From assembly GCF_017348835.2 (NCBI RefSeq), contig NZ_CP071375.1: DNA of 64,000 bases; one strand, 5' to 3'. Position 1 is the first letter of the stretch, and each line of letters opens with the position of its first letter. This DNA comes from Escherichia coli (GTDB lineage Bacteria > Pseudomonadota > Gammaproteobacteria > Enterobacterales > Enterobacteriaceae). The notes beneath the pieces were generated by a model that searched no databases, was not told the origin of the DNA, and worked only from the letters and a program-made list of their open reading frames with translations. Positions 28,150 to 57,266 of the stretch are shown here, one piece after another. The translations under genes were made by a program, and so were the position numbers.

Positions 28150-28165
28150 TCTGGTTCGCTCATAA

Positions 28166-28197
28166 GTAAAAAACGGCACCTGGTGCCTTTTTTTTAG
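28166..28197. terminator. Bidirectional terminator between feaB and tynA
   Basis: aaaaaacggcacc/ggtgccttttttttt: a hairpin flanked by an A-run and a T-run between convergent genes. Confidence 0.6.
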
Positions 28198-28207
28198 TCT
28201 GAAACAA

Positions 28208-30481
28208 TCACTTATCTTTCTTCAGCGCCCCTAGCGTTGGTGTTTCGTCAAAGAAGTTCCATGGTTTAAGCAGAGTATGTACCCATTCGGTCGGCATAAT
28301 CGGCCACTCTTCGGCGCGGGCCACATGTGTGGTGCCGGTGGTCATCCAGACAACGGCGTCGGTGTTGTCCAGCGACTCGTTATCCTTACTGTATTGTCCA
28401 AGACCGGTGTCATGAGTGGAACGGTTCGGATATTTGCCTTCCGGGAAACGCTCGCCAGGGTGATAACGCGTTACCCAAAGCTGCTTGTCCATAAAGCTTA
28501 AACGATGATAGATCCACTCGTCCGGCGCGAACTGGGCACCTTTTGCTACCGGGTGAGTACCACCTGCATAAGGAATAATTTGATAGGAAACCGGATTGCC
28601 CATGCGATTCTCTTTGTTCGGATTACTCAACAGACGAATCGTGCCCGGATCAAATTTCTGTGCGGCATCCTGTTCATTGCCGATGTTGTACTGATTAACT
28701 TGCATAGTACTGGTGCGTGGGCCACCGGCAGTATTCGGTTTTACCACCGGGTCCATCGCCACCAGGCTGTTATTTTCGCCATCTACATCCAGATCGAGGC
28801 GGAAATTATAAATATGTTGGTGTGTAGTACCCACGATATTGTGATCGATAAGCGTGCCGTAGCGCGTGTCATCTTTCGCCGTCTCATCGTGCATGGTTTT
28901 CGCTTTAACACCTTTCACCGCTTCGATGCCCGTAGCTCCGGCATCAATGCCAATAGTGCCGTTTTCATGGAAGATCCAGTCAAAAATGTAGTCATAGTTA
29001 CCCACTGTACTGATCCAGCGCACCACCAACTCCCGGCGTTCGGTACTGACGTTGGGCTGGCCCATTTCCTGATGCTTATACTCAGGCCCAGCATAACGTT
29101 CAAATACCGCGATAGCGCGAGGGATCTCCATCGGCACGCCAGTGTAGTCGGCGATGGTTTCATTAAGGAGCACTGCGTTAGACGGTGCATCTTTACCACG
29201 AGCAATTGGTGAGGTTAGCGTGCCCATACCGTAGTCACCAGAGTCCAGATACGCTTTAAAGTACCAGCCAATATCAGGATCACCGTAAGGCACAATCATG
29301 CCGCCGAGAGAACCTTCGTACATGACTTTGCGTTTAGTGCCATTGTCGTTATAAGTCACGGTGGAGATCATCGGCCCGACGCGCGAGTTCATGCTGAGGT
29401 GAAAATCCCAGTTTCGCCAGTGAATCATATCGCCAGTAATGGTGTAATTTTTACCTTCAGGCTCAATGATTTGCATAGGCTTAACTGCTGGAGCAACGCG
29501 GTCACGGCCATCAAATGGGCGTGCGGTCATTGGCACCGGAACTACCGGACCTTCTTCAATCTTAACGATTTTTTTCTGTTCTAAGTCAACGACCGCCACC
29601 AGGTTTTCGATGGGATGTGCCCAGTAGTTGCCATCACCGACATCAAGATAGCTGATGACTTTGAGCAACCGGGCATCTTGTTTCAGGCCATCTTTACCAT
29701 CGAAATAACCTACGGTCAGCGGCGTGGTAATCACTTTCTTCGCATCAGTAATACCGCGCTTCTTCACGGCAGCGGCAAATTCTTCACTGTTGTTAATAAT
29801 GTTTTGCACGCTGGCGAAATCATCCAGCAACACCATACCGTGGGCGTCTTTAATGGGTTGCCAGGAGAGCAGTTTGTTGTTTTGCAGATCCACCACCGCT
29901 TCGATGATATGTTTGCCGTCGAGCATAATGACGTCGGCTTTGCGTGGCTGGTCAACCGGTTTGTTTTCCAGCGCAAACGCCCAGACAGCTTCTTTATCTG
30001 GCGGTAGCAGGGAGATCTCAGTAAAACGGGTATTGGGTTTGAAGTCCGCGGAAGCTTTAACAATTTCAACGGCCTGTTTAATTTCGTCCGCAGTTAGCGC
30101 ATTAAGTGGGTGAGGGCGCTTTTCTACCTGAAAGGTTTGATCCAGCCCGGACTGGAAAACATCGTTAATAAAGGTGTCAGAAACCCAGGCTTTATTGTCT
30201 TTCATCACTACCGGTACTTGCAGTGCCAGAGGCTGACCATTAACAATTGCTGTTTGCGCACCAGGCTTCACTTTCACGTACGCGCCATCTTTAATCAGGG
30301 TAAAGAGCTGGGCGTAGTCGTCCCACTGCACATCGGCACCAAATTCTTTAAGCGTTTCATCCATTGGCACCATATGCGCTTCACCACCGTGGGCAAATAC
30401 CGGCGCTTGCCAGGCGAAACTTAAGGCGACTGCCAACGCCAGGGCTGTTTTACGGGCAGAATACAGAGAGGGGCTTCCCAT
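28208..30481 (-). CDS. tynA: Periplasmic copper amine oxidase (tyramine oxidase)
   Basis: 757 aa from MGSPSLYSARKT with a signal peptide; the ORF track extends 12 codons further upstream. Confidence 0.9.
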   Translation of the reverse strand: MGSPSLYSARKTALALAVALSFAWQAPVFAHGGEAHMVPMDETLKEFGADVQWDDYAQLFTLIKDGAYVKVKPGAQTAIVNGQPLALQVPVVMKDNKAWVSDTFINDVFQSGLDQTFQVEKRPHPLNALTADEIKQAVEIVKASADFKPNTRFTEISLLPPDKEAVWAFALENKPVDQPRKADVIMLDGKHIIEAVVDLQNNKLLSWQPIKDAHGMVLLDDFASVQNIINNSEEFAAAVKKRGITDAKKVITTPLTVGYFDGKDGLKQDARLLKVISYLDVGDGNYWAHPIENLVAVVDLEQKKIVKIEEGPVVPVPMTARPFDGRDRVAPAVKPMQIIEPEGKNYTITGDMIHWRNWDFHLSMNSRVGPMISTVTYNDNGTKRKVMYEGSLGGMIVPYGDPDIGWYFKAYLDSGDYGMGTLTSPIARGKDAPSNAVLLNETIADYTGVPMEIPRAIAVFERYAGPEYKHQEMGQPNVSTERRELVVRWISTVGNYDYIFDWIFHENGTIGIDAGATGIEAVKGVKAKTMHDETAKDDTRYGTLIDHNIVGTTHQHIYNFRLDLDVDGENNSLVAMDPVVKPNTAGGPRTSTMQVNQYNIGNEQDAAQKFDPGTIRLLSNPNKENRMGNPVSYQIIPYAGGTHPVAKGAQFAPDEWIYHRLSFMDKQLWVTRYHPGERFPEGKYPNRSTHDTGLGQYSKDNESLDNTDAVVWMTTGTTHVARAEEWPIMPTEWVHTLLKPWNFFDETPTLGALKKDK

Positions 30482-30728
30482 TATTAACCTCGTCAGATGT
30501 TGTGTTCTTGTTAGCAACCGCGCTCTGTGGGCGGTTTAGTCAGGTTCACATTATCAGTACTGATGTAAAGGGGATTGCCTGCACCTGCCAGGTTGTTTGG
30601 CAGGTGTGCCAGCTTTTCATACAGTGGGTGCCCTGAAAATACAGATACACATCATGCATAACGTGACAACGTCACAAAATTTGGTGAAATAAAAGGGCAA
30701 CTATTCGCCGTTGCCCTTCATTCACCGA

Positions 30729-32774
30729 TTAATCGACAAAATCACCGTGCTGCCTGGCCACCAGCGTCAGAATTGAATACAGCGCCACCGGGGTTTGATG
30801 TTGATTGAATACCTCTACCGCCCATTCCACCACACCTGTTGGTTTTTCTTCTGCGCTACGCTGTTTTTTCAGCGTCTTGCGCTTACAGGTGAGACGCACC
30901 TGGATGGTATCGCCTGGCTTTACGGGTTCGATAAAACGCAAGCTTTCCAGCCCGTAGTTAGCAATGACCGGACCGACACCGGCATCGACAAACAGACCCG
31001 CAGCCGCAGAAAGCACAAAATATCCATGTACCACACGCTCACCAAAAATAGATTCGGCAGCAGCAATTTTATCCATATGTGCATAGAAATGATCGCCGCT
31101 GAGGCAAGCAAAGTTAACAATATCGGCCTCTGTCATTGTGCGGCGGGGAGTCAACAGGCTGTCGCCTGGTTGCAGCTCCTCAAAATATTTGCGGAACGGA
31201 TGAATACGATCTTCTTCGACTTTCGCACCACGCACCCACTGTTTACTGATAGCGGCAAGCATCGACGGACTACCCTGTACAGCGGTTCGCTGCATGTAAT
31301 GTTTCACCGCTCGTAAACCACCTAATTCTTCACCGCCTCCTGCGCGACCAGGCCCACCATGTACCAGTTGTGGCAGTGGGGAGCCATGCCCGGTGGATTC
31401 TTTTGCCGATTCTTCATTGAGGATCTGAATTCGCCCATGCGTACGTGCCGCATCGGCAATAAACTGACGCGCAATTTGCGGATCAGCCGTCACCAGCGTT
31501 CCCGCAAGGCTACCGCCGCCTGCACAAGCCAGTTGCAGAGCATGTTGCTGGTTTTGTGCTGGCATTAGCGTTGCGACAGGGCCAAAGGCTTCTGTTGCAT
31601 GTACCGCCGGTGTTTCATCCGGCTGCGGACAGTACAATAAGGTTGGCGGGAAGAAGGCACCCGCAGCAGATAAATCCGCCTGACCACCGAGGCGAATCTC
31701 GCATCCTGCAGCCAGCAATGTGTTCACTTTTTCCTGCACATCGGCACGCTGCTCAGCATTTACCAGTGCGCCCATTTTCACGCCTTCCTGCGCAGGATCA
31801 CCGACCACGACTTTCTGTAATCGCGCAACCAGAGCGTCACTGACAGCATTAACCAATATTTGCGGCACAATAATCCGCCGGATTGCCGTACATTTTTGCC
31901 CGGCTTTTGTGGTCATCTCACGCACAACTTCACGAATAAACAGCGCAAACTCCGGGTGATCCGGGGTGACATCTTCGCCCAGTACGCAGCAGTTCAGGGA
32001 ATCAGCTTCCATAGTGAAGGGGATAGATTTGGCTACGATATTTGGCTGAACTCGCAGCATCTGTCCGGTCGCCGCTGACCCCGTGAAAGTCACCACATCC
32101 TGGCTGTCCAGATGATCCAACAAGTCGCCCGCACTACCGCAGATCAGACTAATTGCGCCTTCGGGAACAAGACCACTATCGACAATTGATTTCACCATCG
32201 CCTGAGTCAGTTGGGCCGTCGCGGTGGCTGGTTTGATGATGGCTGGCATTCCGCCCAGCCACGTTGGTGCCAGCTTTTCCAGCATTCCCCAGCAGGGGAA
32301 GTTAAAGGCGTTAATATGCACTGCCACGCCTGACTTTGAGGTCAGTACATGGCGCGCGGCAAATCCACCTTCTTTCGATAATGGGATCAATTCATCTTCC
32401 GGCCACAGCGTATCGTCAGGCAGCTCCCGGATACCGAGGCTGGCGTAAGTAAATAACGTCCCAATACCGCCTTCAATATCAACCCAACTGTCTGCCCGCG
32501 TTGCGCCTGTTTGCGCAGAAAGAGCATAGAAACGCTCTTTTTCACTCAGCAGATGTTTAGCGACCGCTTTAAGCATCGCCGCACGTTCGATAAAGGTCAT
32601 AGCGCGAAGGGCTGGGGCACCTTTTTCAATGGCAAACAGGCGGGCAGCCGCCATATCAAGACCTTCACTGGTCACTTCCCATAACGCCTCGCCGCTAATA
32701 GCGTGATGAATCAAACGGCTACGGCCCCGGCCAGACTGCCAGGTACCGGATAAGAAACTGGCTAACTGCTGCAT
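30729..32774 (-). CDS. paaZ: Bifunctional oxepin-CoA hydrolase / aldehyde dehydrogenase PaaZ
   Basis: 681 aa with an aldehyde dehydrogenase N-domain and MaoC hydratase C-domain; divergent from paaA. Confidence 0.9.
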
Positions 32775-33006
32775 CGCTACTCTCCAGATGTTTCACATTT
32801 CTGTTGCTAATAGTTAAATCACGAATCATAAAAAGCAAGGCGTATTTTAACGAAATGTTAACTGTGCGATCTGTATATCAACTACTAAAAACATTAATGC
32901 ACTGATAAATAATGAGATATAAAAATAGGATGCGAAATCCGTCACAGTTCAAACATACAAAATTTGTGATTTTAGTTAACCGTTGTGTAACTTTCATAAA
33001 ACAACG

Positions 33007-33045
33007 TGATTCGTGTTTTTAATTAATTCACGAAAACTGGAATCG
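33007..33045. promoter_or_regulatory. Candidate PaaX operator in the paaA promoter region
   Basis: TGATTC (33007-33012), 27 nt, GAATCG (33040-33045); resembles the PaaX operator TGATTC-N27-GAATCA as recalled from the literature. Confidence 0.35.
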
Positions 33046-33058
33046 TAAAGGTGATGAC

Positions 33059-33988
33059 GTGACCCAAGAAGAACGCTTTGAGCAACGGATAGCCCAGGAA
33101 ACGGCTATCGAGCCGCAGGACTGGATGCCCGATGCTTACCGAAAGACACTGATCCGCCAGATTGGGCAGCATGCGCACTCCGAGATTGTTGGTATGTTGC
33201 CTGAAGGTAACTGGATCACTCGCGCACCAACCTTGCGGCGTAAAGCCATTCTGTTGGCCAAAGTGCAGGATGAAGCCGGTCATGGTCTGTATCTCTATAG
33301 CGCCGCCGAAACACTGGGCTGCGCCAGAGAAGACATCTACCAAAAAATGCTCGACGGACGGATGAAATATTCCTCCATCTTTAATTATCCGACATTGAGT
33401 TGGGCTGATATCGGCGTTATCGGCTGGCTGGTGGATGGCGCAGCGATCGTCAATCAGGTGGCGTTATGCCGCACTTCTTATGGCCCGTATGCCAGAGCAA
33501 TGGTGAAAATCTGCAAAGAAGAGAGTTTTCACCAGCGTCAGGGGTTTGAAGCCTGCATGGCACTGGCGCAGGGCAGCGAAGCTCAAAAGCAGATGTTGCA
33601 AGACGCCATTAACCGTTTCTGGTGGCCAGCCTTAATGATGTTCGGGCCAAACGATGATAACTCACCAAACAGCGCCAGAAGTCTCGCCTGGAAAATCAAA
33701 CGTTTCACCAACGACGAACTCCGCCAGCGTTTCGTGGATAACACCGTTCCACAGGTTGAAATGCTCGGTATGACCGTTCCTGACCCGGATCTGCATTTTG
33801 ACACTGAAAGCGGTCACTACCGCTTTGGTGAGATCGACTGGCAGGAGTTTAACGAAGTAATTAACGGTCGCGGAATTTGTAATCAGGAGCGGCTCGACGC
33901 CAAACGTAAAGCCTGGGAAGACGGTACCTGGGTACGGGAAGCAGCACTGGCCCATGCACAAAAACAACTTGCCCGTAAGGTCGCATAA
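33059..33988 (+). CDS. paaA: Phenylacetyl-CoA 1,2-epoxidase subunit A
   Basis: 309 aa from [14 protein letters not shown]; ferritin-like di-iron oxygenase. Confidence 0.9.
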
Positions 33989-33999
33989 GGAGATTCAAA

Positions 34000-34287
34000 A
34001 TGAGTAATGTTTACTGGCCGTTATACGAAGTTTTCGTGCGTGGCAAACAGGGCTTATCACACCGCCATGTTGGCAGTTTACATGCTGCCGATGAGCGGAT
34101 GGCACTGGAAAATGCCCGTGATGCTTACACCCGTCGTAGCGAAGGATGTTCAATTTGGGTGGTGAAGGCGAGTGAAATTGTTGCCTCGCAACCGGAAGAG
34201 CGCGGTGAATTTTTTGATCCGGCTGAAAGCAAGGTCTATCGCCATCCAACGTTTTACACCATCCCTGATGGCATTGAGCACATGTGA
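34000..34287 (+). CDS. paaB: Phenylacetyl-CoA epoxidase subunit B
   Basis: 95 aa, MSNVYWPLYEVFVRGKQGLSHRHVGSLHAAD. Confidence 0.9.
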   Translation: MSNVYWPLYEVFVRGKQGLSHRHVGSLHAADERMALENARDAYTRRSEGCSIWVVKASEIVASQPEERGEFFDPAESKVYRHPTFYTIPDGIEHM

Positions 34288-34295
34288 GGTCGGAA

Positions 34296-35041
34296 ATGAA
34301 TCAGTTAACGGCTTACACCTTGCGCCTGGGCGATAACTGTCTGGTGCTCTCCCAGCTGTTGGGTGAATGGTGCGGTCATGCACCGGAACTGGAAATCGAT
34401 CTCGCACTGGCAAACATTGGCCTCGATTTATTAGGTCAGGCACGCAACTTCTTATCGTATGCCGCTGAATTAGCGGGAGAAGGCGATGAAGATCCCTGGC
34501 CTTCACCCGAGACGAGCGCCAGTTCAGCAACTTATTGTTGGTTGAACAACCAAACGGCAATTTTGCCGACACCATTGCACGCCAGTATTTCATCGATGCA
34601 TGGCATGTGGCGCTCTTTACCCGTCTGATGGAAAGCCGTGATCCGCAACTGGCAGCGATTTCTGCCAAAGCAATTAAAGAAGCGCGTTATCACCTGCGTT
34701 TTAGTCGTGGCTGGCTGGAGCGACTGGGCAATGGTACTGACGTATCAGGGCAAAAGATGCAGCAGGCCATCGACAAGTTGTGGCGTTTTACTGCCGAACT
34801 GTTCGATGCCGACGAGATTGATATTGCACTGAGTGAAGAGGGTATTGCGGTTGATCCACGCACTTTACGCGCAGCGTGGGAAGCCGAAGTTTTTGCCGGA
34901 ATCAACGAAGCCACATTGAACGTGCCGCAAGAGCAGGCGTATCGCACTGGCGGTAAAAAAGGACTGCATACCGAACACCTTGGGCCAATGCTGGCAGAAA
35001 TGCAGTATCTCCAGCGTGTCTTGCCCGGTCAGCAGTGGTAA
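34296..35041 (+). pseudogene. paaC: paaC disrupted by a 1-nt frameshift near 34494
   Basis: The N-terminal 66 codons (MNQLTAY...GEGDED) are in one frame and the remainder (LAFTRDERQFSNLLLVEQPNGNF...LPGQQW) in the +1 frame. The two pieces sum to exactly the 248-aa PaaC length if one base is restored at gat|ccctgg. The ORF track shows this as 34284..34628 plus 34535..35041. Confidence 0.75.
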
Positions 35042-35055
35042 CAGAGGAGATGGGT

Positions 35056-35553
35056 ATGCAACGTCTGGCCACCATTGCACCGCCACAGGTGCATGAGATA
35101 TGGGCGCTACTCAGCCAGATCCCGGACCCGGAGATCCCGGTGCTGACCATTACCGATTTAGGCATGGTGCGTAATGTGACACAGATGGGAGAAGGATGGG
35201 TGATCGGCTTTACGCCGACATATTCCGGTTGTCCGGCAACGGAACATTTGATTGGCGCGATACGTGAGGCAATGACAACCAACGGGTTTACCCCCGTTCA
35301 GGTTGTGCTGCAACTCGACCCGGCATGGACCACCGACTGGATGACCCCCGATGCCCGTGAGCGTCTGCGACAGTATGGCATTAGCCCGCCCGCCGGGCAC
35401 AGTTGTCATGCCCATTTGCCGCCAGAAGTACGTTGCCCGCGTTGCGCCAGCGTCCATACCACACTTATCAGTGAATTTGGTTCCACGGCCTGCAAAGCAT
35501 TGTATCGCTGCGATAGTTGCCGCGAACCTTTCGATTATTTCAAATGTATTTGA
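35056..35553 (+). CDS. paaD: Phenylacetate degradation protein PaaD
   Basis: 165 aa from MQRLATIAPPQVHEIWALL; C-terminal Cys cluster. Confidence 0.85.
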   Translation: MQRLATIAPPQVHEIWALLSQIPDPEIPVLTITDLGMVRNVTQMGEGWVIGFTPTYSGCPATEHLIGAIREAMTTNGFTPVQVVLQLDPAWTTDWMTPDARERLRQYGISPPAGHSCHAHLPPEVRCPRCASVHTTLISEFGSTACKALYRCDSCREPFDYFKCI

Positions 35554-35560
35554 GGATGCC

Positions 35561-36631
35561 ATGACAACGTTTCATTCCTTAACGGTGGCAAAAGTGGAGC
35601 CGGAAACCCGTGATGCGGTGACCATTACCTTTGCGGTGCCCCAGCCTTTGCAGGAGGCGTATCGCTTTCGCCCCGGTCAACACTTGACCTTAAAAGCCAG
35701 CCTTGATGGTGAAGAATTACGCCGTTGTTACTCCATTTGCCGCAGCTACCTGCCTGGCGAAATTAGTGTGGCGGTGAAAGCCATTGAAGGCGGACGTTTC
35801 TCCCGCTATGCCCGCGAACACATCCGCCAGGGGATGACGCTGGAGGTCATGGTGCCGCAGGGGCATTTCGGCTATCAGCCGCAGGCCGAACGCCAGGGCC
35901 GCTATCTGGCAATTGCAGCAGGATCAGGTATTACGCCAATGCTGGCGATTATCGCCACCACTTTACAAACCGAGCCTGAAAGTCAGTTCACCCTGATCTA
36001 CGGTAACCGTACCAGCCAGAGCATGATGTTTCGCCAGGCACTGGCAGACCTGAAAGACAAATATCCTCAGCGTTTACAGTTGTTGTGCATTTTCAGTCAG
36101 GAAACCCTCGACAGCGATCTGCTTCACGGGCGTATTGACGGTGAAAAATTACAGTCAATTGGGACCTCGCTCATTAATTTTCGTCTTTATGATGAAGCGT
36201 TTATTTGTGGTCCGGCGGCGATGATGGATGACGCGGAAACCGCCTTAAAAGCACTGGGAATGCCAGAAAAAGCGATTCATCTGGAGCGGTTTAATACGCC
36301 TGGCACGCGCGTCAAACGTAACGTTAACGTGCAAAGTGACGGACAAAAAGTGACTGTGCGTCAGGATGGGCGGGATCGGGAAATCGTGCTTAATGCCGAC
36401 GATGAAAGCATTCTCGATGCGGCATTGCGCCAGGGGGCGGATCTGCCCTATGCCTGCAAAGGCGGCGTCTGTGCGACCTGCAAATGCAAAGTGCTGCGTG
36501 GCAAAGTGGCGATGGAAACCAATTACAGTCTGGAACCGGATGAACTGGCCGCAGGCTATGTGTTGAGTTGCCAGGCACTGCCGCTGACCAGCGATGTGGT
36601 GGTTGACTTTGACGCGAAGGGGATGGCATGA
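35561..36631 (+). CDS. paaE: Phenylacetyl-CoA epoxidase reductase subunit PaaE
   Basis: 356 aa from MTTFHSLTVAKVEPETRDAV; FNR-like reductase with a C-terminal 2Fe-2S ferredoxin (CKGGVCATCKCKVLRG). Confidence 0.9.
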   Translation: MTTFHSLTVAKVEPETRDAVTITFAVPQPLQEAYRFRPGQHLTLKASLDGEELRRCYSICRSYLPGEISVAVKAIEGGRFSRYAREHIRQGMTLEVMVPQGHFGYQPQAERQGRYLAIAAGSGITPMLAIIATTLQTEPESQFTLIYGNRTSQSMMFRQALADLKDKYPQRLQLLCIFSQETLDSDLLHGRIDGEKLQSIGTSLINFRLYDEAFICGPAAMMDDAETALKALGMPEKAIHLERFNTPGTRVKRNVNVQSDGQKVTVRQDGRDREIVLNADDESILDAALRQGADLPYACKGGVCATCKCKVLRGKVAMETNYSLEPDELAAGYVLSCQALPLTSDVVVDFDAKGMA

Positions 36632-37395
36632 GCGAACTGATCGTCAGCCGTCAGCAACGAGTATTGTTGCTGACCCTTAACCGTCCTGCCGCACGTAATG
36701 CGCTGAATAATGCCCTGCTGACGCAACTGGTAAATGAACTGGAAGCTGCGGCTATCGATACCAGCATTTCGGTCTGTGTGATTACCGGTAATGCACGCTT
36801 TTTTGCCGCCGGGGCCGATCTCAACGAAATGGCGGAAAAAGATCTTGCGGCCACCTTAAACGATACACGTCCGCAGCTATGGGCGCGATTGCAGGCCTTT
36901 AACAAACCACTCATCGCAGCCGTCAACGGTTACGCGCTTGGTGCGGGTTGCGAACTGGCATTGTTGTGCGATGTGGTGGTTGCCGGAGAGAACGCGCGTT
37001 TTGGGTTGCCGGAAATCACTCTCGGCATCATGCCTGGCGCAGGCGGAACGCAACGTTTAATCCGTAGTGTCGGTAAATCGTTAGCCTGCAAAATGGTGCT
37101 GAGCGGAGAAAGCATCACCGCCCAGCAAGCACAGCAGGCCGGGCTGGTTAGCGACGTCTTTCCCAGCGATTTAACCCTCGAATACGCCTTACAACTGGCA
37201 TCGAAAATAGCACGTCACTCGCCGCTGGCCTTACAAGCGGCAAAGCAAGCGCTGCGCCAGTCGCAGGAAGTGGCTTTGCAAGCCGGACTTGCCCAGGAGC
37301 GACAGTTATTCACCTTGCTGGCGGCAACAGAAGATCGTCATGAAGGCATCTCTGCTTTCTTACAAAAACGCACGCCTGACTTTAAAGGACGCTAA
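36628..37395 (+). CDS. paaF: Enoyl-CoA hydratase PaaF
   Basis: 255 aa, crotonase fold. Confidence 0.9.
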   Translation: MSELIVSRQQRVLLLTLNRPAARNALNNALLTQLVNELEAAAIDTSISVCVITGNARFFAAGADLNEMAEKDLAATLNDTRPQLWARLQAFNKPLIAAVNGYALGAGCELALLCDVVVAGENARFGLPEITLGIMPGAGGTQRLIRSVGKSLACKMVLSGESITAQQAQQAGLVSDVFPSDLTLEYALQLASKIARHSPLALQAAKQALRQSQEVALQAGLAQERQLFTLLAATEDRHEGISAFLQKRTPDFKGR

Positions 37396-38183
37396 TGATG
37401 GAATTCATCCTCAGTCATGTAGAAAAGGGCGTGATGACACTAACGCTCAACCGCCCGGAACGCCTGAACAGTTTTAATGATGAGATGCACGCACAACTGG
37501 CAGAGTGCCTGAAACAGGCCGAGCGCGACGACACTATCCGTTGCCTGTTGATTACAGGTGCCGGACGTGGATTTTGTGCTGGTCAGGATCTTAACGATCG
37601 TAACGTTGATCCCACAGGCCCCGCACCGGATTTAGGGATGTCAGTTGAACGTTTCTATAACCCACTGGTACGTCGCCTGGCAAAACTGCCAAAACCAGTG
37701 ATCTGTGCAGTTAATGGCGTGGCTGCAGGGGCAGGCGCAACACTGGCACTGGGGTGCGATATCGTTATTGCTGCCCGTTCAGCAAAATTCGTCATGGCTT
37801 TTAGTAAGTTAGGCTTAGTACCCGATTGCGGTGGAACCTGGTTACTGCCACGCGTTGCTGGACGAGCGCGCGCCATGGGGCTGGCACTGCTGGGGAATCA
37901 ACTGAGTGCTGAACAGGCGCACGAATGGGGGATGATCTGGCAGGTTGTTGATGATGAAACGCTGGCAGATACCGCGCAACAGCAGGCACGGCATCTGGCG
38001 ACACAACCGACATTTGGTCTTGGACTTATCAAGCAAGCGATAAATAGCGCTGAAACCAATACGCTTGATACGCAACTGGATCTGGAACGCGACTATCAGC
38101 GACTTGCCGGACGGAGCGCAGATTATCGTGAAGGTGTCAGTGCGTTCCTGGCTAAACGCTCACCGCAGTTCACGGGGAAATAG
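37395..38183 (+). CDS. paaG: 1,2-epoxyphenylacetyl-CoA isomerase PaaG
   Basis: 262 aa, crotonase family. Confidence 0.9.
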   Translation: MMEFILSHVEKGVMTLTLNRPERLNSFNDEMHAQLAECLKQAERDDTIRCLLITGAGRGFCAGQDLNDRNVDPTGPAPDLGMSVERFYNPLVRRLAKLPKPVICAVNGVAAGAGATLALGCDIVIAARSAKFVMAFSKLGLVPDCGGTWLLPRVAGRARAMGLALLGNQLSAEQAHEWGMIWQVVDDETLADTAQQQARHLATQPTFGLGLIKQAINSAETNTLDTQLDLERDYQRLAGRSADYREGVSAFLAKRSPQFTGK

Positions 38184-38184
38184 C

Positions 38185-39612
38185 ATGATGATAAATGTGC
38201 AAACTGTGGCAGTGATTGGGAGCGGCACCATGGGGGCTGGCATTGCTGAAGTTGCCGCCAGTCATGGACATCAGGTTTTACTGTATGACATATCTGCTGA
38301 AGCGCTGACCCGCGCAATCGACGGGATACACGCGCGGCTAAATTCACGCGTGACGCGGGGAAAACTGACTGCTGAAACCTGTGAACGCACATTGAAACGC
38401 CTGATCCCGGTGACCGATATTCACGCCCTGGCAGCTGCGGACCTGGTCATTGAAGCGGCGTCTGAGCGTCTGGAAGTCAAAAAAGCGCTCTTTCTACAGC
38501 TGGCGGAAGTTTGCCCGCCACAAACGCTATTGACCACTAACACTTCGTCAATCTCTATAACCGCGATTGCTGCGGAGGTAAAAAATCCTGAACGTGTTGC
38601 GGGGCTGCATTTTTTTAACCCGGCACCGGTGATGAAGTTGGTGGAGGTGGTCAGTGGGCTGGCAACGGCAGCGGAAGTTGTTGAGCAGTTGTGTGAACTA
38701 ACGTTGAGTTGGGGTAAGCAGCCTGTGCGCTGTCATTCGACTCCTGGATTTATCGTTAACCGTGTTGCGCGTCCTTATTATTCCGAGGCCTGGCGGGCAC
38801 TGGAAGAGCAGGTTGCTGCACCAGAAGTGATTGACGCTGCACTTCGCGATGGCGCTGGTTTCCCGATGGGGCCGCTGGAATTAACCGATCTGATTGGTCA
38901 GGACGTCAATTTTGCTGTCACCTGTTCGGTGTTTAACGCTTTCTGGCAGGAGCGTCGTTTTTTGCCTTCGCTGGTGCAACAGGAACTGGTGATTGGTGGA
39001 CGGTTGGGCAAAAAAAGTGGGCTGGGCGTGTACGACTGGCGCGCGGAACGTGAGGCAGTTGTTGGCCTGGAAGCGGTAAGCGACAGTTTTAGCCCAATGA
39101 AAGTAGAAAATAAAAGTGACGGCGTCACGGAAATTGACGATGTTTTATTGATTGAGACACAAGGCGAGACGGCACAGGCGCTGGCAACACGATTGGCGCG
39201 CCCGGTGGTAGTTATCGACAAAATGGCGGGCAAGGTGGTGACCATTGCTGCGGCAGCGGTGAACCCGGACTCAGCGACCCACAAGGCCATTTATTACCTG
39301 CAACAACAGGGAAAAACAGTGCTGCAAATTGCAGATTACCCAGGAATGCTGATTTGGCGAACGGTAGCAATGATCATCAATGAAGCCCTCGATGCGCTGC
39401 AAAAAGGCGTGGCCTCTGAACAGGATATCGATACCGCCATGCGTCTTGGGGTGAATTATCCATATGGCCCACTTGCCTGGGGAGCGCAACTTGGCTGGCA
39501 GCGAATATTAAGGCTCCTGGAAAATCTACAGCATCACTATGGCGAAGAACGCTATCGCCCATGTTCATTGCTGCGCCAACGGGCGCTTCTGGAGAGCGGT
39601 TATGAGTCATAA
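38185..39612 (+). CDS. paaH: 3-hydroxyadipyl-CoA dehydrogenase PaaH
   Basis: 475 aa from MMINVQTVAVIGSGTMGAGIAEVAASHG (NAD-binding Rossmann motif). Confidence 0.9.
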   Translation: MMINVQTVAVIGSGTMGAGIAEVAASHGHQVLLYDISAEALTRAIDGIHARLNSRVTRGKLTAETCERTLKRLIPVTDIHALAAADLVIEAASERLEVKKALFLQLAEVCPPQTLLTTNTSSISITAIAAEVKNPERVAGLHFFNPAPVMKLVEVVSGLATAAEVVEQLCELTLSWGKQPVRCHSTPGFIVNRVARPYYSEAWRALEEQVAAPEVIDAALRDGAGFPMGPLELTDLIGQDVNFAVTCSVFNAFWQERRFLPSLVQQELVIGGRLGKKSGLGVYDWRAEREAVVGLEAVSDSFSPMKVENKSDGVTEIDDVLLIETQGETAQALATRLARPVVVIDKMAGKVVTIAAAAVNPDSATHKAIYYLQQQGKTVLQIADYPGMLIWRTVAMIINEALDALQKGVASEQDIDTAMRLGVNYPYGPLAWGAQLGWQRILRLLENLQHHYGEERYRPCSLLRQRALLESGYES

Positions 39613-41255: not shown

Positions 41256-42569
41256 ATGATAACCAATACAAAGCTTGACCCGATTGAAACCGCGTCTGTT
41301 GATGAGTTACAGGCGTTGCAAACACAGCGTCTGAAATGGACGCTCAAACACGCGTATGAAAATGTGCCGATGTATCGGCGCAAATTCGACGCAGCAGGCG
41401 TACATCCTGATGATTTCAGGGAACTTTCAGACCTGCGTAAATTTCCCTGTACCACCAAACAGGATCTGCGCGACAACTATCCCTTCGACACCTTTGCCGT
41501 GCCGATGGAACAAGTGGTGCGCATTCATGCTTCTTCGGGAACCACAGGTAAACCGACAGTTGTCGGCTATACGCAAAACGATATTGATAACTGGGCCAAT
41601 ATTGTAGCGCGTTCGTTGCGTGCGGCGGGTGGCACGCCCAAAGACAAAATTCATGTTGCCTATGGTTACGGCCTGTTTACTGGTGGGCTGGGCGCGCACT
41701 ATGGTGCCGAACGTCTGGGCGCTACGGTGATCCCGATGTCTGGTGGGCAGACGGAAAAACAAGCGCAACTGATCCGCGATTTTCAACCAGATATGATCAT
41801 GGTTACGCCATCTTATTGCCTTAACCTGATTGAAGAGCTGGAGCGGCAGTTGGGCGGTGATGCCAGCGGTTGCTCGCTGCGGGTTGGAGTGTTTGGTGCT
41901 GAGCCGTGGACACAGGCCATGCGTAAAGAAATTGAGCGTCGCCTGGGGATCACCGCACTGGATATTTATGGCCTGTCAGAAGTGATGGGGCCGGGGGTGG
42001 CGATGTAGTGTCTGGAAACTACCGACGGCCCAACCATTTGGGAAGATCATTTCTATCCTGAAATTGTTAATCCTCATGACGGCACACCGCTTGCCGATGG
42101 TGAACATGGCGAACTGTTATTCACCACGCTGACCAAAGAAGCATTGCCGGTCATTCGTTACCGCACGCGTGATTTAACCCGACTGTTACCAGGAACGGCG
42201 CGGACTATGCGCCGCATGGATCGCATCAGCGGACGCAGCGATGACATGTTGATTATTCGCGGTGTAAATGTCTTTCCGTCACAACTGGAAGAAGAGATTG
42301 TCAAATTCGAACATTTATCGCCGCATTACCAACTGGAGGTGAACCGCCGGGGGCATCTTGATTCACTTTCTGTGAAAGTAGAGCTGAAAGAAAGCAGCCT
42401 GACATTGACGCATGAGCAGCGTTGCCAGGTGTGCCACCAGCTACGCCATCGGATTAAGTCGATGGTGGGGATTTCTACCGATGTGATGATCGTTAACTGT
42501 GGCAGTATCCCGCGTTCAGAAGGCAAGGCGTGTCGGGTGTTTGATCTGCGCAATATTGTTGGTGCCTGA
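41256..42569 (+). pseudogene. paaK: paaK (phenylacetate-CoA ligase) interrupted by an in-frame TAG at 42006-42008
   Basis: From MITNTKLDPIETAS the frame gives 437 codons in total, but codon ~251 is TAG (...GPGVAM*CLETTDGPTIW...). The rest of the gene continues in the same frame and matches PaaK, as listed in the ORF track (41172..42008 and 42144..42569). Confidence 0.75.
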
Positions 42570-44192: not shown

Positions 44193-44234
44193 CGTCCAGA
44201 TACTGAACATTCTAATTTTTAGCATGTGATCCCT

Positions 44235-44269
44235 AAACCGCAACCCTGATACAGGTTGCGGTTTTTTTA
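44235..44269 (+). terminator. Rho-independent terminator after paaY
   Basis: aaccgcaacc-ctgataca-ggttgcggtt followed by a T-run. Confidence 0.65.
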
Positions 44270-44423
44270 TTGCCGGATGCGGCGCTTTACGCGTTTTGTT
44301 TTGGTGTCTTTCAGGACAATAGAGCAACTCATCCAGTAATCTTGTTTACACCTTCGCATTATTTATCTCTTTTCGTTTCTATACTGATTTTTCTTAATCC
44401 GTTTTATTACAGGGCAGGGTGCG

Positions 44424-45284
44424 ATGAGCAGCAATACATTTACTCTCGGTACTAAATCCGTTAACCGTCTTGGTTATGGCGCGATGCAACTGGCAGGTCC
44501 TGGGGTTTTTGGCCCCCCAAGAGATCGTCATGTCGCTATAACTGTGCTGCGAGAGGCGCTGGCATTGGGCGTCAATCACATTGATACCAGCGACTTTTAT
44601 GGTCCGCACGTCACCAATCAGATTATCCGCGAAGCGCTTTATCCTTACTCTGACGACCTGACAATTGTCACTAAAATTGGTGCGCGGCGTGGAGAGGACG
44701 CTTCCTGGTTGCCCGCCTTTTCTCCGGCAGAGTTGCAAAAAGCGGTGCACGATAATCTACGTAATCTCGGCCTGGACGTACTGGATGTGGTTAACCTGCG
44801 CGTTATGATGGGGGATGGTCATGGCCCAGCGGAAGGATCGATTGAGGCCAGCCTGACCGTGCTGGCAGAGATGCAACAACAAGGCTTGGTAAAACATATT
44901 GGCCTGAGCAACGTCACACCGACGCAGGTTGCAGAGGCGCGTAAGATTACCGAAATCGTCTGTGTGCAGAACGAATACAACATTGCTCATCGTACTGATG
45001 ACGCAATGATTGATGCTTTGGCCCGCGAAGGCATTGCCTATGTGCCGTTCTTCCCGCTCGGGGGCTTTACGCCGCTGCAATCCTCTACGCTGTCGGATGT
45101 TGCTGCGAGCCTGGGTGCAACACCCATGCAGGTGGCGCTGGCGTGGCTGTTACAACGTTCACCGAATATTTTGCTGATCCCAGGGACGTCTTCTGTTGCG
45201 CATTTACGGGAGAATATGGCTGCTGAAAAATTGCATCTTTCTGAGGAAGTGTTGTCTACGTTGGATGGTATTTCGCGAGAATAA
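44424..45284 (+). CDS. ydbC: Aldo-keto reductase YdbC
   Basis: 286 aa, AKR family (MSSNTFTLGTKSVNRLGYGAMQL...). Confidence 0.85.
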   Translation: MSSNTFTLGTKSVNRLGYGAMQLAGPGVFGPPRDRHVAITVLREALALGVNHIDTSDFYGPHVTNQIIREALYPYSDDLTIVTKIGARRGEDASWLPAFSPAELQKAVHDNLRNLGLDVLDVVNLRVMMGDGHGPAEGSIEASLTVLAEMQQQGLVKHIGLSNVTPTQVAEARKITEIVCVQNEYNIAHRTDDAMIDALAREGIAYVPFFPLGGFTPLQSSTLSDVAASLGATPMQVALAWLLQRSPNILLIPGTSSVAHLRENMAAEKLHLSEEVLSTLDGISRE

Positions 45285-45409
45285 CGAGCCAGACGCTCGC
45301 ATATTGTGCTTAAGGAAGATCACAAAGCGATGCTGAAATTATGGGAAAACAGGTAAGTGGATTGAGATGTGGACTGAAGATCTACAGTCCACATCTAGAC
45401 CGTGTCCGG

Positions 45410-50389: not shown

Positions 50390-51190
50390 ATGAACATTAC
50401 CCCGTTTCCGACGCTTTCGACGGCAACTATAGATGCCATAAATGTTATCGGACAGTGGCTGGCGCAGGATGATTTCTCCGGTGAGGTGCCGTATCAGGCC
50501 GATTGCGTCATACTTGCAGGCAATGCGGTTATGCCGACTATAGATGCGGCATGTAAGATTGCCCGCGATCAGCAAATTCCTTTACTGATTAGTGGTGGTA
50601 TCGGTCACTCGACAACTTTTTTGTATAGCGCCATCGCACAGCATCCGCACTACAACACTATCCGCACCACTGGCAGAGCAGAAGCGACCATCCTGGCGGA
50701 TATCGCTCATCAGTTCTGGCATATTCCGCATGAAAAAATCTGGATTGAAGACCAGTCAACAAACTGCGGTGAAAACGCACGCTTTAGCATCGCGCTATTG
50801 AATCAGGCCGTAGAACGAGTTCACACAGCTATCGTTGTACAGGACCCCACCATGCAGCGGCGCACGATGGCGACGTTCCGCCGTATGACCGGGGACAATC
50901 CCGATGCACCACGCTGGTTAAGTTATCCCGGATTCGTTCCTCAGTTAGGAAATAACGCAGACAGTGTAATCTTTATTAATCAGTTACAAGGATTATGGCC
51001 GGTTGAGCGTTATCTCTCACTACTCACTGGCGAGCTGCCGCGTTTACGCGATGATAGCGATGGCTACGGTCCCCGCGGGCGAGATTTTATCGTTCACGTT
51101 GATTTTCCGGCAGAAGTCATCCATGCATGGCAAACGCTGAAACACGATGCGGTGCTCATCGAGGCGATGGAAAGTCGCTCGTTACGTTAA
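50390..51190 (+). CDS. ydcF: DUF218 (ElyC/SanA-like) domain protein YdcF
   Basis: 266-aa ORF in the conserved position between hrpA and aldA. Confidence 0.8.
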
Positions 51191-51386
51191 AAATTGCCCG
51201 TTTGTGAACCACTTGTTTGCAAACGGGCATAACTCCTGCCTTTTATTTCTGCCTCTTATTCCTTTTACACTTGTTTTTATGAAGCCCTTCACAGAATTGT
51301 CCTTTCATGATGCCGTCTCTATGATGATTGATGTTAATTAACAATGTATTTACCAAAAACAAACATATAAATCACAGGAGTCGCCC

Positions 51387-52826
51387 ATGTCAGTACCCGT
51401 TCAACATCCTATGTATATTGATGGACAGTTTGTTACCTGGCGTGGAGACGCATGGATTGATGTGGTAAACCCTGCTACAGAGGCTGTCATTTCCCGCATA
51501 CCCGATGGTCAGGCCGAGGATGCTCGTAAGGCAATCGATGCAGCAGAACGTGCACAACCAGAATGGGAAGCGTTGCCTGCAATTGAACGCGCCAGTTGGT
51601 TGCGCAAAATCTCCGCCGGGATCCGCGAACGCGCCAGTGAAATCAGTGCGCTGATTGTTGAAGAAGGGGGCAAGATCCAGCAGCTGGCTGAAGTCGAAGT
51701 GGCTTTTACTGCCGACTATATCGATTACATGGCGGAGTGGGCACGGCGTTACGAGGGCGAGATTATTCAAAGCGATCGCCCAGGAGAAAATATTCTTCTG
51801 TTTAAACGTGCGCTTGGTGTGACTACCGGCATTCTGCCGTGGAACTTCCCGTTCTTCCTCATTGCCCGCAAAATGGCTCCCGCTCTTTTGACCGGTAATA
51901 CCATCGTCATTAAACCCAGTGAATTTACGCCAAACAATGCGATTGCATTCGCCAAAATCGTCGATGAAATAGGCCTTCCGCGCGGCGTGTTTAACCTTGT
52001 TCTGGGGCGTGGTGAAACCGTTGGGCAAGAACTGGCGGGTAACCCAAAGGTCGCAATGGTCAGTATGACAGGCAGCGTCTCTGCAGGTGAGAAGATCATG
52101 GCGACTGCGGCGAAAAACATCACCAAAGTGTGTCTGGAATTGGGTGGTAAAGCACCAGCTATCGTAATGGACGATGCCGATCTTGAACTGGCAGTCAAAG
52201 CCATCGTTGATTCACGCGTCATTAATAGTGGGCAAGTGTGTAACTGTGCAGAACGTGTTTATGTACAGAAAGGCATTTATGATCAGTTCGTCAATCGGCT
52301 GGGTGAAGCGATGCAGGCGGTTCAATTTGGTAACCCCGCTGAACGCAACGACATTGCGATGGGGCCGTTGATTAACGCCGCGGCGCTGGAAAGGGTCGAG
52401 CAAAAAGTGGCGCGCGCAGTAGAAGAAGGGGCGAGAGTGGCGTTGGGTGGCAAAGCGGTAGAGGGGAAAGGATATTATTATCCGCCGACATTGCTGCTGG
52501 ATGTTCGCCAGGAAATGTCGATTATGCATGAGGAAACCTTTGGCCCGGTGCTGCCGGTGGTCGCATTTGACACGCTGGAAGATGCTATCTCAATGGCTAA
52601 TGACAGTGATTACGGCCTGACCTCATCAATCTATACCCAAAATCTGAACGTCGCGATGAAAGCCATTAAAGGGCTGAAGTTTGGTGAAACGTACATCAAC
52701 CGTGAAAACTTCGAAGCTATGCAAGGCTTCCACGCCGGATGGCGTAAATCCGGTATTGGCGGCGCAGATGGTAAACATGGCCTGCATGAATATCTGCAGA
52801 CCCAGGTGGTTTATTTACAGTCTTAA
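51387..52826 (+). CDS. aldA: Lactaldehyde dehydrogenase
   Basis: 479 aa aldehyde dehydrogenase (ELGGKAP..., catalytic Cys region GQVCNCAERV). Confidence 0.9.
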   Translation: MSVPVQHPMYIDGQFVTWRGDAWIDVVNPATEAVISRIPDGQAEDARKAIDAAERAQPEWEALPAIERASWLRKISAGIRERASEISALIVEEGGKIQQLAEVEVAFTADYIDYMAEWARRYEGEIIQSDRPGENILLFKRALGVTTGILPWNFPFFLIARKMAPALLTGNTIVIKPSEFTPNNAIAFAKIVDEIGLPRGVFNLVLGRGETVGQELAGNPKVAMVSMTGSVSAGEKIMATAAKNITKVCLELGGKAPAIVMDDADLELAVKAIVDSRVINSGQVCNCAERVYVQKGIYDQFVNRLGEAMQAVQFGNPAERNDIAMGPLINAAALERVEQKVARAVEEGARVALGGKAVEGKGYYYPPTLLLDVRQEMSIMHEETFGPVLPVVAFDTLEDAISMANDSDYGLTSSIYTQNLNVAMKAIKGLKFGETYINRENFEAMQGFHAGWRKSGIGGADGKHGLHEYLQTQVVYLQS

Positions 52827-52835
52827 TGAGTGAAA

Positions 52836-52861
52836 GAGGCGGAGGTTTTTTCCTCCGCCTG
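52836..52861. terminator. Bidirectional terminator between aldA and gapC
   Basis: aggcggagg-tttttt-cctccgcct between convergent genes. Confidence 0.65.
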
Positions 52862-52867
52862 TGCGCG

Positions 52868-53869
52868 TCAGAGTTTAGCGAATTTTTCGAGGGTGCGAAT
52901 AAGCTGCGTGACGAAGCCATATTCGTTATCGTACCAGGCGACCGTTTTCACCAGTTGTAAATCGCCCACGGCGGTAATTTCCGTTTGCGTGGCATCAAAC
53001 ACCGAACCGAAATGGCTGCCAATGATATCGGAAGAGACTATTTCTTCATCGGTATAACCAAATGACTCGTTATTGGTGGTTGCTTGTTTAAGTGCGTTAT
53101 TCACCTCTTCGGCAGTCACTTTTTTTCCGAGAATCGATACCAGTTCAGTGACCGAACCTGTTTTCACCGGCACGCGTTGCGCATGACCTTTCAGTTTGCC
53201 GCTCAGTTCCGGGATCACCAGACCAATGGCTTTTGCCGCGCCCGTAGTGTGGGGAATGATATTTTCTGCCGCTGCGCGTGAAGCACGTAAATCTTTACCA
53301 CGCGGGCCATCCACCAGTGACTGGGTGCCAGTATAGGCATGAATGGTCGTCATCGTGCCGACTTCTATCCCGAAACTGTCATGCAAGGCTTTGGCCATCG
53401 GCGCAAGGCAGTTAGTGGTGCATGACGCCACGGAAACAATGGTGTCGTTGCCATCCAGAGTGTCGTCATTAACGTTATAAACGATGGTTTTCATTTCACC
53501 GGCAGGAGCGGAAATCAACACCTTCTTCGCGCCAGCATCAAGATGCGCCTGCGATTTCTCGGCGGAGGTATAAAAGCCAGTACATTCGACAATGATTTCT
53601 GCACCTTTCGCTTTCCACGGAATATTTTTAGCCTCTTTTTCGGCGTAAACCGCGATACTTTTCCCATTAACGATAAGTGAATCTTCCGTAAAATCAACGC
53701 TCCAGGGGAACGGACCATAGTTTGAATCATGTTTCAGCAGATAGGCGAGAATTTTTGGGGAAGTAAGATCATTAATAGCGACAACGTCTATGTTGCTTTT
53801 GACTTCAAGTAATCGACGCAACACCAGTCGACCGATACGACCAAAACCGTTAATACCAACTTTACTCAT
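52868..53869 (-). CDS. gapC: Glyceraldehyde-3-phosphate dehydrogenase GapC, apparently intact
   Basis: Uninterrupted 333-aa ORF with NAD-binding N-terminus ([12 protein letters not shown]) and catalytic region [10 protein letters not shown]; the orthologue is a pseudogene in K-12. Confidence 0.85.
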
Positions 53870-54057
53870 GGTTTTCTCCTGTCAGGAACGTTCGGATGAA
53901 AATTGATCCTTTCCAGGCTTAGACCAGGATGGCGGGATGGGCAATCTCCATTCTTACAGTGAAACGTAACGTACTGAAAACGGGTGAACAATATTTAATG
54001 AAATTTTGAGAAAAGCCCGTTATGTTAACGGAAAATTATGTTAAAGCAGGAAATGTT

Positions 54058-54588
54058 ATGGAAAATAAATACTCAAGGTTACAAATCAGCATTCACTGGC
54101 TGGTCTTTTTGCTGGTTATCGCAGCGTATTGCGCAATGGAGTTTCGTGGTTTCTTCCCACGTAGCGATCGGCCACTCATCAACATGATTCATGTTTCCTG
54201 TGGCATCTCAATTCTCGTGCTGATGGTGGTTCGTCTTTTGTTAAGACTGAAATACCCAACCCCGCCGATTATACCTAAGCCGAAACCGATGATGACGGGA
54301 CTGGCGCATTTGGGACATTTGGTGATTTATCTCCTGTTTATTGCGCTGCCAGTGATTGGTTTGGTGATGATGTATAACCGAGGCAACCCGTGGTTTGCGT
54401 TTGGTATGACGATGCCTTACGCTTCAGAGGCCAATTTCGAACGGGTAGATAGCTTAAAGTCGTGGCATGAAACGCTGGCGAATCTGGGATACTTTGTCAT
54501 CGGGTTGCACGCTGCGGCCGCACTGGCACACCACTATTTCTGGAAGGACAACACACTTCTACGCATGATGCCGCGTAAACGTTCCTGA
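54058..54588 (+). CDS. cybB: Cytochrome b561
   Basis: 176 aa from MENKYSRLQISIHWLVFLLVIAAY; 4-TM di-haem cytochrome. Confidence 0.9.
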   Translation: MENKYSRLQISIHWLVFLLVIAAYCAMEFRGFFPRSDRPLINMIHVSCGISILVLMVVRLLLRLKYPTPPIIPKPKPMMTGLAHLGHLVIYLLFIALPVIGLVMMYNRGNPWFAFGMTMPYASEANFERVDSLKSWHETLANLGYFVIGLHAAAALAHHYFWKDNTLLRMMPRKRS

Positions 54589-54832
54589 AGGATATTTAAA
54601 GAAAACGCCTGTACTAAAACCGACCCGTGGTACAGGCGAAGAATACGGGTCTACATCGGAAGCGCCTATTATATTTATTTGTATGACAAATAAAACCATA
54701 ATCCTTGCCCATACGTCCATCTGGCTTATTTTTAATCAATTCACCCGATCTTTGATCTCATCAACGGTATCAAAATAAACCAGCGTATAACGTTCAAATC
54801 GAACATAAGATTCGATAAACCATGGAGGTTAT

Positions 54833-55006
54833 ATGAAAAAACTAGCACTTATTTTGTTTATGGGAACGCTTGTTTCCTTTTATGCCGATGCTGGGCGCAA
54901 ACCCTGTTCTGGTTCGAAAGGGGGGATCTCACACTGTACGGCAGGCGGCAAATTTGTCTGTAATGATGGTTCTATTAGTGCCTCGAAAAAAACATGCACT
55001 AACTGA
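54833..55006 (+). CDS. ydcA: Small secreted protein YdcA
   Basis: 57 aa, MKKLALILFMGTLVSFYADAGRKPCSGSKGGISHCTAGGKFVCNDGSISASKKTCTN; below the ORF-track cutoff, found by manual translation. Confidence 0.7.
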   Translation: MKKLALILFMGTLVSFYADAGRKPCSGSKGGISHCTAGGKFVCNDGSISASKKTCTN

Positions 55007-55077
55007 AGTGTAAAAGGGGTGCCATGAGAAAATGAATCTGCTAGTCAGATGCGCGGGGAAAATCCCCGCGCTTGCCC

Positions 55078-55227
<150 letters not shown>

Positions 55228-55625
55228 AGCCTTTCTCCTTGCCGGATGGCGGGTAAGAGGCTAAGATCTGAATTGCTAGGTTCATTCGTTGGCCTCGGTT
55301 GATAGAAATGTCGGTCGGGGCCTTCGTCTTTCTGATTCCCGGTTAGCCTGAAAACAGAAAGTCTCAGGCACCCGCAGGCATCCTATGAGGTTTCCTTAGG
55401 GACGAAAATAATCACTTCACGAAATTGCGTGCTGTTTTCCAGAATTTTTCGTCATTCGGGTTAGCCAGTTTAACTATTCCTCACTTTCTTCATTCCAATG
55501 GCATTAACCTTCTCTGCAATAATTGTTGTAAAAATGTGACGCAAAGAGGCTTTTAGTCGTAAGTAATTACCGTCAAATGCCGATGACTTTCTATCAGGAG
55601 TAAACCTGGACGAGAGACAACGGTA

Positions 55626-57266
55626 ATGAATACAACTCCCTCACAGCGATTAGGTTTTTTGCATCACATCAGGCTGGTTCCGTTATTTGCCTGCATTCTA
55701 GGCGGTATCTTAGTTCTATTCGCATTAAGTTCAGCCCTGGCTGGCTATTTCCTCTGGCAGGCCGATCGCGATCAGCGTGATGTTACTGCGGAGATTGAGA
55801 TTCGGACCGGGTTGGCGAACAGTTCAGATTTTTTGCGTTCAGCCCGGATCAATATGATTCAGGCCGGGGCTGCGAGTCGTATTGCGGAAATGGAAGCAAT
55901 GAAGCGAAATATTGCGCAAGCCGAATCGGAGATTAAACAGTCGCAGCAAGGGTATCGTGCTTATCAGAATCGGCCGGTGAAAACACCTGCTGATGAAGCC
56001 CTCGACACTGAATTAAATCAACGCTTTCAGGCTTATATCACGGGTATGCAACCTATGTTGAAATATGCCAAAAATGGCATGTTTGAAGCGATTATCAATC
56101 ATGAAAGTGAGCAGATCCGACCGCTGGATAATGCTTATACCGATATTTTGAACAAAGCCGTTAAGATACGCAGCACCAGAGCCAACCAACTGGCGGAACT
56201 GGCCCATCAGCGCACCCGCCTGGGTGGGATGTTCATGATTGGCGCGTTTGTGCTTGCCCTGGTCATGACGCTGATAACATTTATGGTGCTACGTCGGATC
56301 GTCATTCGTCCACTGCAACATGCCGCACAACGGATTGAAAAAATCGCTAGTGGCGATCTGACGATGAATGATGAACCGGCGGGTCGTAATGAAATCGGTC
56401 GCTTAAGTCGTCATTTACAGCAAATGCAGCATTCACTGGGGATGACAGTAGGGACTGTTCGACAGGGCGCGGAAGAGATTTATCGTGGCACCAGCGAAAT
56501 TTCCGCTGGCAATGCGGACCTTTCATCTCGCACCGAAGAACAAGCGGCGGCTATCGAACAAACTGCCGCCAGCATGGAGCAACTCACTGCGACGGTGAAA
56601 CAGAATGCGGATAACGCGCATCATGCCAGCAAACTGGCGCAAGAGGCTTCTATTAAAGCCAGCGATGGCGGGCAGACGGTTTCCGGGGTAGTAAAAACGA
56701 TGGGTGCTATCTCTATGAGTTCGAAGAAAATTTCTGAGATCACCGCCGTCATCAACAGTATTGCTTTCCAGACGAATATTCTGGCACTGAATGCTGCCGT
56801 TGAAGCCGCTCGAGCGGGTGAGCAAGGACGTGGATTTGCCGTTGTCGCCAGCGAAGTACGGACACTCGCAAGCCGCAGCGCTCAGGCGGCGAAAGAGATT
56901 GAAGGCTTGATCAGTGAATCAGTCAGGTTAATTGACCAGGGGTCGGATGAGGTGGCAACGGCAGGGAAAACCATGAGCACTATTGTTGATGCCGTCGCGA
57001 GTGTCACACATATCATGCAGGAAATCGCCGCCGCCTCGGATGAACAAAGTAGAGGCATAACGCAGGTTAGCCAGGCGATTTCTGAAATGGATAAGGTGAC
57101 GCAACAGAATGCTTCTCTGGTAGAAGAAGCCTCAGCGGCGGCGGTGTCCCTTGAAGAACAGGCGGCGCGATTAACTGAGGCGGTGGACGTATTCCGTCTG
57201 AACAAACATTCTGTGTCGGCAGAACCTCGCGGAGCGGGTGAACAAGTTAGTTTCGCTACGGTGTGA
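55626..57266 (+). CDS. trg: Methyl-accepting chemotaxis protein III (ribose/galactose sensor)
   Basis: 546 aa with two TM segments, a HAMP domain and a conserved MCP signalling domain. Confidence 0.9.

Follow-up and report, generated by a model that had tools for sequence, protein, structure and literature searches.

An intact gapC gene, encoding a predicted second type I GAPDH, at the aldA–cybB locus of an Escherichia coli genome

We examined the gapC gene carried by a 64,000-nucleotide stretch of Escherichia coli DNA (the whole of which is referred to here as 'the window') and conclude, at a probability of roughly 93%, that it is an ordinary functional allele of the second E. coli type I NAD-dependent glyceraldehyde-3-phosphate dehydrogenase (GAPDH), located at its conserved position between aldA and cybB, the source being strain PE164 or a clone identical to it. 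Compared over positions 40001–64000, the window matches E. coli PE164 (from a pig in Nanjing, China; NZ_CP114128.1) at 100% identity, and over that same interval it is essentially identical to F2_81 (from a pig in Australia), save for an IS481-family insertion in the latter strain. RefSeq already lists this exact gapC sequence, in both strains, as an intact gene for a type I GAPDH (WP_000048684.1).

The gapC open reading frame, taken from the list of ORFs in the window, occupies positions 52868–53869 on the minus strand and runs from ATG to TAA through 333 codons, with no internal stop or frameshift. A preliminary description of this DNA had called it an intact 333-residue GAPDH gene, and its coordinates, length and strand were exact. 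A Shine-Dalgarno sequence (AGGAG; 53876–53880, minus strand), read directly from the sequence, is located 6 nt 5' of the start codon. The gene is flanked by a convergent aldA (51387–52826, plus strand) and by a divergent cybB encoding cytochrome b561 (54058–54588, plus strand), and the order aldA (+), gapC (−), cybB (+) is the same in K-12, PE164, CFT073 and O157:H7. Both this position and a nucleotide identity of 98.4% to K-12 over the full length of the gene identify it as the orthologue of K-12 b1416/b1417. Between the stop codons of the convergent aldA and gapC lies a GC-rich hairpin with a 9-bp stem (52837–52860; RNA fold −18.5 kcal/mol, z = −4.2, with none of 200 shuffled sequences equally stable), which is likely to act as a shared, bidirectional terminator for the two genes.

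An Rfam scan of positions 51000–56000 identified no structured RNA in or beside gapC, its only matches (RydC and sokB) both being outside the gene. The match to the small RNA RydC (54599–54662, minus strand; 92.5 bits) lies directly 3' of cybB and that to the sok antitoxin RNA (55222–55373, minus strand; 108.1 bits) lies at hokB/sokB; both exceed the Rfam gathering score, and both RNAs have the same annotated neighbours as in K-12 (cybB–ydcA and hokB, respectively).

The encoded protein contains the two Pfam domains of the GAPDH fold, Gp_dh_N (PF00044; residues 3–102, aligned to profile positions 2–100 of 101, 3.3e-36) and Gp_dh_C (PF02800; residues 155–313, profile positions 1–158 of 158, 7e-58). 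The NCBIfam equivalog model for type I GAPDH (TIGR01534, EC 1.2.1.12) aligned over its entire length (positions 1–330 of 330) with a score of 447.7 bits against a cutoff of 367.2; chance could not plausibly give an ORF such a score (448 bits) on a curated model. Residue roles for type I GAPDH (catalytic, cofactor and Ps/Pi) were taken as named in PMC8615399, and all 13 of those named functional residues are retained, with no active-site substitution among them. The NAD site contains its GxGxxG motif as G-F-G-R-I-G (residues 8–13), together with R11, I12, S120 and D34, the last of which is the acidic residue that specifies NAD+ in the type I GAPDH fold. The catalytic and Ps/Pi residues S149, C150, T151, H177, T180, T182, T209, G210 and R232 are likewise all present, with the codon for the catalytic Cys150 (53420–53422, minus strand) inside an SCTTNC motif; the catalytic and NAD-binding motifs mentioned in the preliminary description are therefore all to be found in the protein. 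The same 13 residues are invariant across 107 enterobacterial orthologues, with the exception of G210, which is kept in 106 of the 107. These orthologues (97% identical in E. albertii, and 87–90% identical in Citrobacter, Trabulsiella, Klebsiella oxytoca/grimontii, Kluyvera and Yokenella) are full-length proteins of 332–333 residues with the same domains, and display only ordinary orthologous divergence.

The housekeeping GAPDH of E. coli is GapA. GapC has its fold (Gp_dh_N plus Gp_dh_C) and Cys/His chemistry in common with both GapA and the erythrose-4-phosphate dehydrogenase Epd/GapB, but is an orthologue of neither, with equivalog scores falling below the cutoffs for GapA (NF011954, 302.8 bits versus 662) and for Epd/GapB (NF010058, 280 versus 539; TIGR01532, 277.5 versus 530.55). 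The model for ArsJ-associated GAPDH (NF033735) was also below its cutoff, at 306.5 bits versus 450, and the genes next to gapC are aldA and cybB.

A search of the PDB using GapC returned as its best matches the 7C5F/7C5H/7C5P/7C7K series (E = 7e-219). These and other entries (Zhang et al. 2020, 2021) describe a crystallized E. coli enzyme termed 'EcGAPDH1', which is the same length as the window's GapC, has the same catalytic, NAD-binding and Ps/Pi-site residues, and is identical to it (PDB 7C5F) at 332 of 333 positions; the sole difference is D68N, with Asn in the window (codon at 53666–53668, minus strand). EcGAPDH1 turns over G3P (Km 0.73 mM) with NAD+, and crystals of its BPG and thioacyl complexes have been obtained; its activity is abolished by the C150A substitution and drops by 10^3- to 10^4-fold with C150S or H177A (PMC8615399). 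By analogy, the window's GapC would oxidize and phosphorylate G3P to 1,3-bisphosphoglycerate via a thioacyl intermediate on Cys150, with His177 serving as the catalytic partner of that cysteine and NAD+ held in the N-terminal Rossmann domain. GAPDH activity is thus a prediction for the protein encoded here, the measurements having been made on the D68 allele.

Because the chromosomal GapC of E. coli B differs from that of the window at residue 68 alone, the EcGAPDH1 construct appears, by sequence identity, to correspond to the E. coli B allele. The crystallized enzyme has Asp at residue 68, as do K-12, B, CFT073 and O157:H7; of the nine E. coli alleles that we compared, only that of PE164/F2_81 has Asn68. 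The position is not among the residues to which a catalytic or ligand-binding role is assigned, and Asn is found there in 13 of the 107 enterobacterial orthologues (including those of Kluyvera and Yokenella), which argues that the D68N change is tolerated. E. coli B carries an IS1A element ∼170 nt 5' of its intact gapC, in the place that cybB occupies in other strains (positions 1–320 of the B region, in its own numbering), and this element may influence expression of gapC or cybB in B and BL21 derivatives.

The preliminary description had contrasted this gene with a split gapC pseudogene in K-12, a contrast that alignment bore out. The K-12 gapC_1/gapC_2 pseudogene is found at the same aldA–cybB locus, with the same terminator hairpin and with only 2 differing positions in the 188-nt gapC–cybB intergenic region upstream of the gene, and is annotated in W3110 as 'frameshifted; internal stop'. 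Base-by-base alignment of the two genes indicated 16 differences in 1002 nt, comprising 15 substitutions and one indel. Relative to the window, K-12 displays 12 synonymous changes, N68D, R18G, conversion of codon 39 from AAA (Lys; 53753–53755, minus strand) to a TAA stop, and loss of one A from a run of seven. That run spans gene nucleotides 744–750 (codons 248–250; 53120–53126, minus strand), and its shortening from A7 to A6 creates the K-12 frameshift at codon 248. The window is free of R18G and of both inactivating lesions. Arg18 is invariant in the 107 orthologues and is replaced by Gly in K-12, so that R18G is consistent with decay after inactivation. An alignment to K-12 had been proposed in the preliminary description as a check on its claim; neither that alignment nor translation of the gene revealed a hidden frameshift or stop in the window's gapC, and no active-site residue was found to be substituted.

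A survey of complete E. coli genomes placed the window's gene within the common state of the species. gapC is present in 5417 of 5426 such genomes, and in an evenly spaced sample of the ranked matches it measures 1002 nt in 30 of 39 full-length matches (∼80%); eight of the other nine are 1001 nt long, as in K-12, and one contains an IS1 insertion. The gene is annotated as intact, with 333 residues, in all eight diverse strains that we inspected (CFT073, 1517k, 103, MS20675, Ecol_745, E110019, B and O157:H7 PV15-279). Pairwise Nei-Gojobori dN/dS values among nine intact alleles ranged from 0.00 to 0.08, with dS of up to 0.21, apart from a value of 0.31 for one near-identical pair separated by only two differences; outside of the lineage with the dead allele the ratio is about 0.03. 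Values of 0.00–0.08 across phylogroups indicate that gapC is under strong purifying selection species-wide. The intact gene is the ancestral and majority state, from which the K-12 pseudogene derives as the allele of one natural lineage.

The frequencies of individual alleles were estimated from exact matches of short allele-specific queries and are lower bounds, because any nearby SNP abolishes an exact match. The A6 frameshift (a 72-mer) was found in at least 1041 of the 5426 genomes and the K39 stop (a 67-mer) in at least 1152, so the two K-12 lesions are each carried by about 19–21% of complete genomes; the intact A7 context (a 73-mer) was found in at least 1425. Among the matches listed, carriers of the lesions are mostly non-laboratory strains (from humans, pigs, a dog, a wild bird, river water and wastewater), and in D4 (dog) and PEC1009 (wild bird) gapC bears the same annotation as in K-12, 'frameshifted; internal stop'. 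The presence of the K-12 lesions in mostly natural isolates argues that the pseudogene is an allele of a natural lineage and not a laboratory artefact, and a dead gapC in about one fifth of complete genomes implies that E. coli can do without the gene in some lifestyles at least. A broader reading, to which we give only tentative credence, would be that the pseudogene is an old natural allele and not a product of domestication, with gapC being niche-dependent and its loss marking one lineage; if so, the window's intact gene would represent the majority side of a species polymorphism. That gapC is needed, for example, in cold or aquatic secondary habitats is an ecological speculation. Strain cM2a, with an IS1 insertion in gapC, and SCPM-O-B-7615, in which only 20% of gapC is matched, show that gapC has also decayed sporadically and independently of the K-12 allele.

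Intactness of gapC is itself already known: publications cover the gene, the activity and crystal structures of its enzyme, and the way in which K-12 differs here from natural isolates. As the work of Espinosa-Urgel & Kolter (Mol Microbiol 1998) is cited in PMC2949598 and PMC1796617, gapC is intact in environmental isolates and yields a truncated product in laboratory strains. The literature has recorded natural isolates with an intact gapC since 1998, and our finding is thus a re-observation. A minor by-product is the frequency of the lesions among the 5426 genomes and their occurrence mostly in non-laboratory isolates, which qualifies the published view of gapC decay as a phenomenon of laboratory strains.

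The preliminary description had further joined the intact gapC to lesions in the nearby paa cluster, as a strain-specific pattern of gene decay and retention. The lesions are real in the sequence. In paaK (41256–42569; phenylacetate-CoA ligase), a GAG-to-TAG change at 42006–42008 creates E251*; F2_81 has the same stop, and of 3129 matching complete genomes only these 2 contain its exact context. We read it as a genuine, clone-specific change that would inactivate the first step of phenylacetate catabolism. In paaC (34296–35041; 'frameshifted' in RefSeq), 1 nt is deleted at ∼34493 relative to F2_81 and K-12; this deletion, which F2_81 lacks, was found in PE164 alone among 3115 matching genomes and may be either a very recent mutation or a sequencing or assembly error. 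The two lesions are ∼11–19 kb from gapC and are unrelated to its intactness, with no evident link to that gene. The proposed pattern does not hold: whereas the paa lesions are private to the clone, intactness of gapC is the default of the species. The appearance of combined decay and retention arose because K-12 was taken as the reference, and a coincidence was over-read. K-12 is an atypical reference at gapC, and a gene that is intact where that of K-12 is broken is therefore no sign of a strain-specific peculiarity.

The intact frame might in principle have been created during assembly or polishing, the true strain having A6 and the seventh A being restored by reference to other genomes. The critical site is a 7-nt homopolymer, which is an error-prone context, and the same assembly contains the private 1-nt paaC deletion that is itself perhaps an error. 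However, F2_81, which was sequenced independently, has an identical gapC throughout, private N68 codon included; the A7 context is found exactly in 1425 complete genomes; and the window also lacks two changes that go with the K-12 allele, the K39 stop and R18G. Given the same gene in two independent assemblies, we consider an artefact to be excluded for practical purposes. An equally negligible probability attaches to the idea that GapC is a GAPDH-fold paralogue with a different substrate, either erythrose-4-phosphate (as for Epd) or in ArsJ-coupled arsenate detoxification. Its sub-threshold similarity to the Epd and ArsJ-GAPDH models, which might be taken in support, is to be expected of any type I GAPDH; its scores are below those two cutoffs and above that of the generic type I model, no arsJ is adjacent, and an enzyme identical at 332 of 333 residues uses G3P and NAD+ and has been crystallized in BPG and thioacyl complexes (PMC8615399).

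A somewhat less remote, although still quite improbable, explanation is that gapC is intact yet cryptic or silent in this strain, with too little time having passed for lesions to appear and with no contribution to GAPDH activity in vivo. A promoter scan upstream of gapC revealed nothing beyond chance (2 consensus sites, versus 1.8 expected from shuffled sequence) and hence no convincing sigma-70 consensus, ∼20% of complete genomes harbour the dead allele at no obvious cost, and the clone is losing genes nearby (the paaK stop and the paaC frameshift). Against this, dN/dS values of 0.00–0.08 across phylogroups correspond to strong purifying selection on the protein, which requires expression; the gene retains an intact ribosome-binding site; and its upstream sequence departs at only 2 of 188 positions from that of K-12, whose promoter has reportedly remained responsive to the environment, being activated in fresh water (PMC2949598 and PMC1796617, citing the 1998 paper). 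The ribosome-binding site, the conserved upstream region and the species-wide selection together suggest that gapC is probably expressed in this strain, and we favour an ordinary functional allele.

Several other features of the region differ between the window and its relatives. F2_81 contains, in addition to its IS481-family insertion, which is located between hokB and trg (23297–24403 of the F2_81 region, in its own numbering), an internal stop in paaZ (1–773 of the same region); neither is present in the window, which indicates that this region is acquiring different lesions in each of the two near-identical clones. A comparison of window positions 44193–45409 with the corresponding K-12 region (21502–38694, in its own numbering) indicated that the window is without the IS2/IS30-disrupted ydbA autotransporter pseudogene that K-12 has between paaY and pdxI. 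It is also without the ydbD–ynbABCD genes present in K-12 between pdxI and azoR, of which only a 72-nt annotated remnant is found (45285–45356). Alignments of many other genomes to this part of the window are likewise split in two, a picture that fits the same presence/absence difference.

Further upstream, a sitABCD iron/manganese transporter cluster (10548–13732), in which sitB is annotated as a truncated pseudogene (12256–12768), adjoins prophage remnants that include tail-fibre genes, trkG and the rrrD/essD lysis genes. The window itself starts (1–798) within a gene whose annotated product is IteS, an anti-phage peptidase of the S8 family; this gene is followed by prophage genes encoding DUF1367, DUF1364 and DUF1133 proteins.
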